A stretch of 64,000 nt of DNA from Alphaproteobacteria bacterium. GTDB lineage: Bacteria > Pseudomonadota > Alphaproteobacteria > CALKHQ01. Shown in pieces: positions 59,076-61,836 of this stretch. The DNA lies in contig CBDDFZ010000001.1 of assembly GCA_965227515.1 (NCBI GenBank), forward strand, positions 1,536,001 through 1,600,000. The letters run 5' to 3'. Position 1 is the stretch's first letter; each line of letters opens with the position of its first letter. The translations under genes and the position numbers were made by a program. Under the pieces are notes generated by a model. The model had not been told where the DNA came from, searched no databases, and worked only from the letters and a program-made list of their open reading frames with translations.

Positions 59076-59837
59076 ATGACCATAATCGCGCGTATGGCGG
59101 TTGCGGCCGGCGGACTGGCCATTGCAGCCGCTTCGTCCGGGGCCGCCCAGGCTGACACCGTCTACAGCCGTTACGAGCTGCTGCTGGGCGGCACGCCGGC
59201 GGCAAAGCTGGAAACCGAGATCACGATCAATGGCGGCGACTATCGCGTCGCCGCGCAGGCCGAACTGACAGGCGGCTACGCCGTCATGGCGGACTGGGAC
59301 CTGACGGTGCGCACCGTTGGTCTCGTGCAGGGCGAATCCTTGCTGCCGCTGGACCACTACAAGGTTTCCGACGGCGGGGACCGGTGGGTGCAGATCAACT
59401 ATGCCGATGGCCTGGTGACCAATCTGGACTACCGCCCGTCGTCGCTGACCGTCGACGTTCAGGGCCTGTCGCAGGAGACGATCGACACCGCCATCGACCC
59501 GTTGACCGCCATCGCGATGCTGTCGCGGCAGGTGGGCGAGACCGGCAATTGCAGCGCCACGGCCTGGATTTTCGATGGCCGCAAGTATTTCGAGGCGACC
59601 GTCACCCACGGCGGACAGACCACGCCGCCGGCCGGCGACTACAGTGGCAGCGCCTACCGGTGCGTCCTTCAACTGGACGACGCTTCGCCCTATGGCCGGG
59701 TCGACGACGATCCCAACCGTTTCGACCTCTGGATCGCCCAGCCGGTGGCGGGCGCGCCCTACGTGCCAGTGGTGATCGACACCCGTGTCGGCTGGGGTTC
59801 GGTGCGGGTCGTGCTGCTGAACGCGCGTTCGAGCTGA
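59076..59837 (+). CDS. DUF3108-like exported protein
   Basis: signal peptide, IDPLTA, IFDGRK; paralog of 32031-32822. Confidence 0.7.
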   Translation: MTIIARMAVAAGGLAIAAASSGAAQADTVYSRYELLLGGTPAAKLETEITINGGDYRVAAQAELTGGYAVMADWDLTVRTVGLVQGESLLPLDHYKVSDGGDRWVQINYADGLVTNLDYRPSSLTVDVQGLSQETIDTAIDPLTAIAMLSRQVGETGNCSATAWIFDGRKYFEATVTHGGQTTPPAGDYSGSAYRCVLQLDDASPYGRVDDDPNRFDLWIAQPVAGAPYVPVVIDTRVGWGSVRVVLLNARSS

Positions 59838-60000
59838 TGTGAGATCAGGTCGGCCGCGGCAGACCAACATCGGGGCTTGAGGAGGTGTAGATGGGCTAAC
59901 GGCCCTTGTTTGGTGGCGTGCATGAGTGGTCGTCCCTCAAGATGTCGGTGTCATACACGGAGTCGGGTTTGCCGCTCCAAGACATCGAGGAGAGACGACC

Positions 60001-61038
60001 ATGAACTACTATGCCGGGATTGACGTTTCTTTGGAATGGTCATCGGTGTGCGTTGTTGACGGCGCGGGCGGGATTGTCTGCGAGGCTCGTATTGCGAGCA
60101 CGCCGGCGGGTTTGTTGTTGTGGTTTGGGTCTTTGGGGATTTCGGTTGAGCGGATTGGTCTTGAGGCGGGGCCGTTGTCGCAATGGCTTGTGCGGGGATG
60201 TAGCGAGGGCGGTCTTTCGGTTGAGTTGCTGGAGACGCGTCATGTTGCGCGAGCGCTTTCGACGATGCCGGTGAAGTCGGACCGCTCGGACGCACGCGGG
60301 ATTGCTCAGCTGATGCGTGTGGGCTGGTTTCGTCCGGTTCACTGCAAGTCTTTGGCGGCCCAGGAGATGCGGGCCCTTTTGAAGGGTCGCGACCAGCTCC
60401 GCGCGAAGCTGCACGATCTTGAGATGCACCTTCGTGGTCAGCTGCGGAACTTCGGGCTGAAGGTAGGGCACACCACCAGGCGCAGCTTTTCGACACGTAT
60501 TTCGGAGCTTGTGGCGGGGCATCCGGTACTGGAGGCGGGGGCGCTGCTGTCGGCACGCGATGGCCTGTTGCTATCGTTCACGGCGCTGGACCGGCAGGTC
60601 CGGGCGGCGGCGCAGGCCGACGATCGCGCTCGCCTGCTGATGACGGTGCCGGGCGTGGGGAGCATTGTCGGACTGACCTACTTGTCGGGAGTGGACGACC
60701 CCGGGCGGTTTGCCTCGTCGCGCCTGGTGGGTGCGCACTTCGGCCTGACGCCGACCAAGCGCCAGTCGGGCGAGAGCGAGGTGATGGGGCGGATATCGAA
60801 GGTAGGGGACGCCGATGTGCGCTCGGCCCTCTATGAGGCGGCACACGTGGCTCTGACCCGGCCGATCGAGGGCGGCTGGCTGAAGAGCTGGGCGATGAAG
60901 CTGGCCAGGCGTGCGGGCATGAGGAAGGCGAAGGTCGCGCTGGCGCGCCGGCTCGCCGTGATCATGCACCGGATGTGGGTTGACGGCACACCGTTCAACC
61001 ATGCCGGACCGGTGCGCCCGGCGATGGCGACAGCATGA
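60001..61038 (+). CDS. IS110 family recombinase
   Basis: GIDVS, GLEAG, KSDRSDA (DEDD), VPGVG, GLTP...QSG, ISKVGD. Confidence 0.95.
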   Translation: MNYYAGIDVSLEWSSVCVVDGAGGIVCEARIASTPAGLLLWFGSLGISVERIGLEAGPLSQWLVRGCSEGGLSVELLETRHVARALSTMPVKSDRSDARGIAQLMRVGWFRPVHCKSLAAQEMRALLKGRDQLRAKLHDLEMHLRGQLRNFGLKVGHTTRRSFSTRISELVAGHPVLEAGALLSARDGLLLSFTALDRQVRAAAQADDRARLLMTVPGVGSIVGLTYLSGVDDPGRFASSRLVGAHFGLTPTKRQSGESEVMGRISKVGDADVRSALYEAAHVALTRPIEGGWLKSWAMKLARRAGMRKAKVALARRLAVIMHRMWVDGTPFNHAGPVRPAMATA

Positions 61039-61039
61039 T

Positions 61040-61275
61040 GGCCGCGGCATAAGGAGAACCGACACACGAGCTTCGACGGGCACCGACACCGGCCCGTCGA
61101 GCGCCGTCCCGCGCCGGGACGATGGATCAGGTCAGGCCGCCATCCGGGATGTCGCCTCGCATGAGAGCACGCTTCCGTAGATTGGACCGACCGATCCTCG
61201 CATATCCATCTTGGCGGCGGCCCTGCGCCGACCCCGTACAGAAGCATGACCCAGGCGCCGGGACGACGAAAAAGG
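61040..61275 (+). ncRNA. Putative bridge/seek RNA
   Basis: segments matching target (ccatccggg, cgtag) and donor junction (ccatctt, tacagaag); boundaries approximate. Confidence 0.7.
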
Positions 61276-61302
61276 GATTGACCAACAATGGCCCGTTACA
61301 GA

Positions 61303-61386
61303 AGCCCGGATGGAGCGAAGCGCAATCCGGGGAACTCTGAGGTGAAGGTATGTCCCCGGGTTGCACTTCGTTCCACCCGGGCTACG
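61303..61386. repeat. GTAG REP inverted pair, family F (left copy interrupted by IS110)
   Basis: [gt]agcccggatggagcgaagcgcaatccggg ... cccgggttgcacttcgttccacccgggctac. Confidence 0.8.
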
Positions 61387-61413
61387 ACTGAATCCGCGTA
61401 AGCCGATCCCGAT

Positions 61414-61836
61414 CTAGTCGTCGCGCTGCAAGCGCTCCATGCGCTCGTGGCGCTCCTGCGCCTCCAAGCTCAACGTGGCGATCGGCCGCGCCTCCAGGCG
61501 GCGCAGCGAGATCGGCTCCTGGGTCACTTCGCAATAGCCGTACGACCCGTCCTCGATACGCCGGAGCGCGGCATCGATCTTGGAGATCAGCTTGCGCTGG
61601 CGGTCGCGGGTGCGCAGCTCGATGGCGCGGTCGGTTTCCTTGGTCGCCCGGTCGGAAAGATCGGGCTCGGCCATGCTCTCGCCTTGCAGGCTGCGGATCG
61701 TATCGCTCGATTCCTGGAGCAATTCCGCCCGCCATTGCAACAGCTTGGCACGGAAATATTCCCGCTGGCGCCCGTTCATGAACTCCTCATCATCCGATGG
61801 GCGATAGTTGTCATCGATGATGATCTGGTCGTTCAT
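61414..61836 (-). CDS. dksA: RNA polymerase-binding protein DksA
   Basis: EEFMN, D..DRA, RDRQRKLISKI, YGYCE, RLEARP. Confidence 0.95.
   Translation of the reverse strand: MNDQIIIDDNYRPSDDEEFMNGRQREYFRAKLLQWRAELLQESSDTIRSLQGESMAEPDLSDRATKETDRAIELRTRDRQRKLISKIDAALRRIEDGSYGYCEVTQEPISLRRLEARPIATLSLEAQERHERMERLQRDD

Follow-up and report, generated by a model that had tools for sequence, protein, structure and literature searches.

The 64,000-nucleotide (nt) stretch of DNA analysed here, hereafter the window, comes from an Alphaproteobacteria bacterium (GenBank assembly GCA_965227515.1, contig CBDDFZ010000001.1, positions 1,536,001 to 1,600,000) and carries an insertion sequence (IS) of the IS1111 group. 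This element is very probably guided by an RNA, predicted from its own 3' non-coding region, into the head of a repetitive extragenic palindromic (REP) sequence. Segments of the predicted RNA complement both strands of the target and both ends of the element, and they vary with the target both within the genome and across homologs. A sequence-only reading of the window had proposed an IS110/IS1111 element with an AG core and a bridge RNA programmed against a host REP family. Its family assignment, core and REP target all hold, as judged from the Pfam and NCBIfam matches of the transposase and from the position of all 21 copies in the genome at REP heads.

The element occupies 59889-61304 on the forward (+) strand, on which all features below lie unless marked otherwise. 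It measures 1416 base pairs (bp) with both AG cores, and the inserted DNA is 59889-61302 or, equivalently, 59891-61304 (1414 bp including one AG core). These boundaries were set by flank divergence among copies. The range initially given for the element, 59889-61386, was correct at its start and too long at its end, as the part beyond 61304 up to 61386 is a REP pair outside the inserted DNA; the junction and guide strings reported with it were each recovered at their positions. The left junction reads GGTGT-AG-ATGGGC (59885-59896), with the GT half of the interrupted GTAG head at 59887-59888 and the left core at 59889-59890. The right junction reads TTACAGA-AG-CCCGGATGG (61296-61313), with the right core at 61303-61304. 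GT directly left of the core and AG at both ends are found in 21/21 copies. Removal of the element restores, as had been claimed, a GTAG REP with an inverted partner. The remainder of the interrupted unit (CCCGGATGG...ATCCGGG, 61305-61333) was identified by its flanks and the inverted repeat, and its partner lies on the minus strand with the GTAG head intact (61353-61386; head at 61374-61385 in the head census). Together they form a 31 nt inverted repeat with 87% complementarity (arms 61303-61333 and 61353-61383).

The genome (5.52 Mb, two contigs) contains 20 full copies and one internally deleted copy, at 89-100% identity. All 21 lie in a single orientation in the target GT-AG-CCYGGRTG with AG at both ends; insertion is therefore site- and orientation-specific at the AG core within the GTAG head and, as in the IS110 family, duplication is limited to the core. 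Copies at unrelated sites, which the sequence-only reading had named as evidence against itself, were looked for, and each of the 21 sits at a GTAG REP head. Heads of the form GTAGCC[C/T]GG[A/G]TG number 135 in total, 114 unoccupied and 21 occupied, with 38 convergent pairs.

The only open reading frame (ORF) of the element region, at 60001-61038, encodes a transposase of 345 amino acids (aa) that matches PF01548 (E = 9e-13) and PF02371 (E = 2e-20) in Pfam, as well as the NCBIfam model NF033542, 'IS110 family RNA-guided transposase' (231 bits versus a cut-off of 140). In a search of solved structures, for which the PDB comparison set consisted of IS110-group structures only, its C-terminal domain matches IS621 (E = 5e-11) and ISCro4. 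The motifs GIDVS, LEAG, SDRSDAR and GLTPxxxxSG align with their IS621/ISCro4 counterparts and agree at the D, E, DxxD and SG positions; the N-terminal stretch of this alignment has a low score. Both the length of 345-347 aa and GLTPTKRQSG in the translation fit the IS1111 description (GL-P----S(t)G, 330-350 aa). Judged by these features, the protein is a DEDD/serine recombinase of the IS110 family, IS1111 group. Its ORF is intact (345-347 aa) in 20/20 full copies, and from these intact ORFs the insertion sequence is predicted to be an active family in this genome.

The layout of the element agrees with the published description of the IS1111 group (PMC11187229, PMC11208160). The non-coding regions measure 112 nt at the 5' side (59889-60000) and 266 nt at the 3' side (61039-61304), the longer one lying downstream of the transposase gene as is characteristic of the group. 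Subterminal inverted repeats are present at 59897-59914 and 61281-61298 (18 nt, 78% complementary); they are imperfect and slightly above the published IS1111 length, given as 7-17 bp (PMC11208160) or usually 11-13 bp (PMC11187229). The terminal extensions are 8 + 4 bp when the core is given to the left end and 6 + 6 when it is given to the right. This is near, and not identical to, the asymmetric extensions described for IS1111 elements (7 bp left and 3 bp right, occasionally 6 + 3).

Four guide segments are located in the 3' non-coding region. Guide 1 (CCATCCGGG, 61140-61148) complements the top strand of the right target flank CCCGGATGG, and guide 2 (CGTAG, 61176-61180) equals the left target plus core and so complements the bottom strand. 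Guide 3 (CCATCTT, 61206-61212) complements the element's left end and the core in the arrangement they would have in a circle, whereas guide 4 (TACAGAAG, 61237-61244) equals the right end plus core. The segments and complementarities reported beforehand are all present apart from one base: GTAG of CGTAG matches the left flank of the window copy, and the first C does not (flank T-GTAG), although it matches the flanks of 15/21 copies. In 5'-to-3' order the top-strand match precedes the bottom-strand match, as described for IS1111-family seekRNAs (PMC11187229).

Within the genome, guide 1 covaries with the target. By their 3' non-coding regions, the 20 full copies divide into two groups, 13 with CCATCCGGG (...CCGGG, G-guide) and 7 with CCATCCAGG (...CCAGG, A-guide). 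G-guide copies occupy 11 C-sites and 2 T-sites, versus 0 and 7 for A-guide copies (Fisher p = 4.6e-4). T is found at the variable position in 34% of all heads, and 7/7 T-sites for the A-guide copies corresponds to p = 5e-4. The perfectly complementary CCCGGATG class, which makes up 20% of heads, harbors 9 of the 13 G-guide copies (p = 1.7e-4). Occupancy is 9/27 for perfect-match sites and 2/62 for CCCGGGTG sites, which need one U-G pair. G-guide copies at T sites and copies at ...GGGTG sites may be explained by G-T and U-G wobble; a U of the RNA opposite a G of the target appears to be tolerated, widening the reach of each guide.

Of the competing explanations, the one that survives best accepts that the family is RNA-guided and holds that the window copy is defective by a 6-bp in-frame deletion, moving only with the help of other copies. 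The window copy lacks six bases (two codons) after 60533 and encodes 345 aa versus 347 aa. It is the sole G-guide copy with the 1416-bp form, the six bases being present in the other 12 G-guide copies and in the contig consensus of a public run. We consider this explanation unlikely, since the deletion is in frame, an A-guide copy (L015) also encodes 345 aa, and 11 other copies have exactly the same RNA region as the window copy.

Covariation was also assessed across homologs. One genome per species was scanned, yielding 29 loci (39-69% identity; L numbers below), mostly from alphaproteobacterial metagenome assemblies. The guide test comprised 16 elements or variants with a recognisable right end (homologs at 43-68% aa identity). 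Excluded were L027 (a near-duplicate of L026 from the same assembly, with a guide/flank match of 8 nt), L023, which lacks its right end, and L034, whose downstream part does not resemble the family. L029, L037 and L041-L051 were kept outside the 16-element test, and L037, L042-L048 and L050 were looked at separately. L046 and L050 have no recognisable right end, and a covariance-model search for the RNA gave no match in L029, L041, L049 and L051.

Guide 1 matches its own right flank over runs of 9, 5, 9, 9, 5, 8, 9, 11, 9, 4, 12, 10, 7, 11, 5 and 11 nt. A match of at least 7 nt is reached in 12/16 cognate comparisons versus 6/204 non-cognate ones (other target group), and at least 9 nt in 0/204 of the latter. 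The four shorter matches belong to L025, L032, the first module of L039 and L014, an A-guide copy from the window genome itself; with G-U pairs counted, L014 attains 9 nt. The target-arm covariance model retrieved nine further loci beyond those used for building it; of the seven among these nine that have a right end, 6 match their flank (13, 9, 10, 7, 10 and 8 nt) and L048 fails. For guide 2, a suffix match of at least 4 nt to the left flank plus core is found in 12/16 cognate versus 19/220 non-cognate comparisons. On the donor side, guide 4 equals the right end plus core over 7-8 nt in 16/16, with three variants changing together (ACAGAAG, AGAGAAG and AGCGAAG), and guide 3 complements the left end by 4-8 nt in 17 homologs, both sides being mostly conserved. 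The guides therefore covary with both target strands, with L025, L032, L048 and the first module of L039 as exceptions, and match both element ends, as described for bridge RNAs and seekRNAs. The guide/target covariation suggested as a test by the sequence-only reading is thus positive within the genome as well as across homologs.

In the nearest homologs, L024 and L026/27, GTAG is kept as left target and core, and the right guide follows another multi-copy GTAG-headed repeat, of which their own genomes hold 6 and 23 intact copies, respectively (reversed control patterns: 0). Site choice by the transposase protein alone, recognising the REP hairpin or the GTAG head while the 3' matches are incidental, could draw on this, as a GTAG head at the closest homologs L024 and L026 might equally be a conserved protein preference; palindromic REPs could be recognised as structures, and the guide RNA is here predicted from sequence and not observed. 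We nevertheless regard such a protein-only choice as very improbable, because the 9-nt guide changes with the right flank over about a dozen targets, at a fixed structural position and in strict complementarity, because a single G-to-A / C-to-T switch occurs inside one genome, and because the RNA is required in published experiments on relatives (PMC11187229).

The predicted RNA spans about 61102-61268 (~165 nt) and has a conserved structure of a closing stem and two arms. The closing stem P1 pairs 61102-61117 with 61251-61268 in 17/17 full-region folds. Its strands vary among clades yet stay complementary, with a mean duplex energy of -25.6 kcal/mol for cognate strands versus -15.4 for 224 cross-clade pairings. 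In a 7-clade matrix the cognate partner is best in every row, with one near tie. The target arm consists of a basal stem (5' strand 61120-61136, from the covariance-model alignment; 3' strand 61187-61200, from folds and covariation) and a distal hairpin (61149-61175, from per-sequence folds) that varies in length and sequence by clade; guides 1 and 2 are located between the two. The basal stem forms ~11 pairs in 16/17 separate folds. RNAalifold on a MAFFT alignment recovered 8 pairs only, because bulges shift the register between clades, so a covariance model of the basal stem was built and used for realignment. In the resulting alignment (27 hits, 24 distinct rows), 88.6% of cells are paired versus 76.6% in shuffles (0/500 reach this value) and 36-54% with a slid partner, and 7/11 pairs show compensatory changes. 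As the alignment is fitted to the model, these pair counts lean towards structure; the slid controls and 9 non-seed hits serve as safeguards. Guides 3 and 4 flank a second hairpin, the distal hairpin of the donor arm (61212-61236), which is present in the folds and also recovered by RNAalifold, with compensatory changes in three pairs. The donor-arm closing stem is short (3-5 pairs, judged by eye).

The four segments thus sit in two internal loops, which is where the sequence-only reading had suggested looking for them, in a structure backed by covariation. That the segments act as DNA, or are captured REP fragments, has a slight foothold in the resemblance of guide 1 to a piece of the REP stem and in the DNA-level signals that the subterminal repeats place at the ends, but hardly deserves credence, as the segments lie in internal loops of covarying stems (7/11 basal pairs, cognate-specific P1), an RNA-type pattern, and homologs with non-REP targets carry a matching segment at the same position.

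Several observations weigh against guidance by this RNA. The minimum-energy fold of the whole 3' non-coding region is no better than that of shuffles (z = -1.29), and when sequences are folded singly, some pairing occurs among the guides themselves. Part of the closing stem may alternatively be taken up by a local hairpin, GUCCC...GGGAC. A scan of 59700-61600 against Rfam 15 returned no family beyond two chance-level microRNA hits, and none of the listed public sequencing runs is RNA. Guide and flank fit poorly in L025 (5 nt), L032 (4 nt), L048 (3 nt) and the first module of L039 (5 nt); for L025, L032 and L048 the misfits may reflect off-target insertions, later flank rearrangement or decayed guides. 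In L032 the misfit is confined to the right guide, the left one matching over 8 nt. Guide 2 is short and its rate of 4-nt matches is only moderately above background, while guide 3 covaries little or weakly because its sequence is mostly conserved. Common ancestry links the homologs, and one target family is shared by several of them; the counts, which represent about a dozen distinct guide/target pairs, therefore overstate independence. The two-codon loss, finally, leaves the activity of the window copy itself only presumable.

Taken as an RNA-guided element, it would move as follows. The recombinase would act with the ~165-nt structured RNA from the 3' region, in which the internal loop of the target arm would present a 9-nt guide complementing the top strand to the right of the insertion site, together with a 4-5-nt guide equal to the left flank plus core. 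The internal loop of the donor arm would carry guides for both element ends as joined in the excised circle. Recombination at the AG core would then give single-orientation insertion between GT and AG of the REP head with no target duplication, and transcription of the transposase gene and of the RNA downstream of it would start from a promoter assembled solely at the circle junction. We infer that the RNA is made and bound, that the circle forms and that the junction promoter works.

A scan for sigma-70-like promoters in the integrated copy found none. A candidate -35 box, TTGACC (61278-61283), is completed at the circle junction by the -10 box GAAGAT, which spans the right end, core and left end. 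In-silico joining of the ends gives TTGACN, a spacer of 17-18 nt and GAAGAT in 14/17 elements, a putative promoter that resembles the junction promoters described for the IS110 family (PMC12288879). The 5' untranslated region contains a hairpin at 59927-60001 (arms 59927-59938 and 59990-60001; 12 nt, 92% complementary), with the same arms in homologs. Its 3' arm extends over the ribosome-binding region as far as the first base of the start codon, and the hairpin likely dampens translation of the transposase. In the contigs of four DNA runs no joint was found that would represent an empty site or a circle; contigs cannot show rare circles. One contig of 1438 nt from run X3 covers 59887-61306, which is typical of assembler behaviour at a repeat. 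Read depth over the element is above that of the flanks and is not a copy number.

The target repeat is a genuine REP family, with many short palindromic GTAG-headed units and inverted pairs. An ORF for a Y1 transposase resembling REP-associated tyrosine transposases (RAYTs) lies at C1:1603908-1604246, ~4 kb past the window end, and matches PF01797 barely above the cut-off (23.9 bits versus 23). It is flanked by inverted REP heads of the IS target family at 1603786 (+) and 1604418 (-), the arrangement of a RAYT gene between inverted REPs. A second Y1 match at C1:2017088-2017375 has no such REP heads within 1.5 kb. The identical 12-nt head occurs in the Pseudomonas mendocina REP in Table 1 of Nunvar et al. 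(PMC2817692).

The internally deleted copy (G000:C1:998355-999182, L021/L022; 827 bp) keeps both ends and the donor arm; its deletion has removed the target arm along with the C-terminal half of the gene. Found at the same type of REP head, it is a candidate non-autonomous derivative. A search of the genome for orphan copies of the RNA region gave none besides the 20 full copies and the deleted one. Element DNA was found in 0/30 related genomes searched (0/26 of those at least 90% complete), and a search of a plasmid collection gave no near match. Each end of the element further carries an inward-facing terminator-like hairpin with a T-run (59893-59905, +; 61290-61306, -), overlapping the subterminal repeats, which may block read-through from flanking genes.

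Some homologs depart from this organisation. L039 (43% aa identity) has two target-arm modules (2583-2672 and 2759-2847), 175 nt apart in a 537-nt 3' non-coding region. Their guides differ, being TTCGATCCC/CCGTTAG versus TTCCGTCCC/CCGTCAG, and the right flank is matched over 10 nt by the second module and only 5 by the first. This could represent two alternative target loops or a partial tandem duplication. The clade of L030-L033, L037, L038 and L040 (~52% aa identity) has a different palindromic target, by eye GATGTCCGC...GCGGACATC, and inserts directly before the 3' arm of the palindrome; host-repeat targeting in the lineage is thus not confined to GTAG REPs. In L023 (2700-2900), whose right end is missing, the sequence past the donor arm is unrelated to the family and looks interrupted by another element.

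Reports of IS110-family insertion into REPs go back to 2003-2006 (IS621, ISPpu10, and Tobes and Pareja; cited in PMC11187229 and PMC11208160). RNA guidance was shown in 2024 for IS621 (bridge RNA) and for the IS1111-family elements ISEc11, ISKpn4, ISPst6 and ISPa11 (seekRNA) (PMC11208160, PMC11187229), and for 93% of catalogued IS1111 elements a bridge RNA is predicted in the right end (PMC11208160). ISPa11 of Pseudomonas aeruginosa, also an IS1111 element, shares the non-coding region downstream of the gene and the host REP target; its transposase co-purifies with a seekRNA whose top-strand match lies 5' of the bottom-strand match (PMC11187229). Compared by description, it differs in host class and REP sequence. 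ISEc11, also of IS1111, likewise encodes an 82-nt seekRNA and a longer form in its downstream non-coding region, and changing its guides together with the donor flank retargets the element (PMC11187229). Its target is short, linear and not a REP, with extensions of 7 + 3 bp versus 8 + 4 or 6 + 6 here.

The multi-copy elements ISPpu9 and ISPpu10 of Pseudomonas putida are inserted at one REP position; ISPpu9 recombines at an AG dinucleotide found at both ends, and ISPpu10 circles form a hybrid promoter (PMC12288879). Unlike the present element, ISPpu9 belongs to the IS110 group and is described as having no subterminal repeats (PMC12288879). IS621 of Escherichia coli, from the IS110 group, has in common the DEDD/serine recombinase, a two-loop bridge RNA and REP insertion, and its natural target ATCAGGCCTAC holds the GTAG head on the other strand (PMC11208160). 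At one position that target departs from what the guide encodes, in a way comparable with the wobble positions of the present element. IS621 differs in that its bridge RNA is encoded upstream of the gene, in the left end, its subterminal repeats are very short and its guide order is reversed. The core of IS621 is CT. By likeness to ISEc11 and IS621, the guides of the present element may be reprogrammable.

Because REP-targeting, RNA-guided relatives have already been described, the present element is a well-resolved addition to a known mechanism, and it or a close relative may already be contained in the ISfinder-wide tables of PMC11208160 and PMC11187229. Two aspects are modestly new, namely the one-base guide switch that partitions REP variants within one genome and the retention of GTAG in L024 and L026/27 while the right guide follows the repeat of their own genome. 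For a family that is currently attracting interest in programmable DNA insertion, the element supplies an active, multi-copy alphaproteobacterial IS1111 member whose guide code can be read. Within a single genome, 21 independent insertions set against 114 empty sites amount to a natural specificity table, whose use lies in comparative data on mismatch tolerance and guide evolution and not in a new mechanism. As a model expectation, insertion would take place between GT and AG, in one orientation, in the targets GTAGCCCGGATGG, GTAGCCCGGGTGG and GTAGCCTGGGTGG, the G-guide preferring CCCGG and the A-guide requiring CCTGG.

We lean, with some reserve, towards seeing the lineage as a 'REP-head specialist', in which left guide and core stay fixed on GTAG, a head common to many REP families, while only the 9-nt right guide is retuned to the REP stem of each host, and in which a G-to-A change has given two co-resident sublineages that split the C and T variants of the REP. 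If this is true, the partition of REP variants by a G-to-A guide change would be a case of natural, ongoing guide reprogramming.

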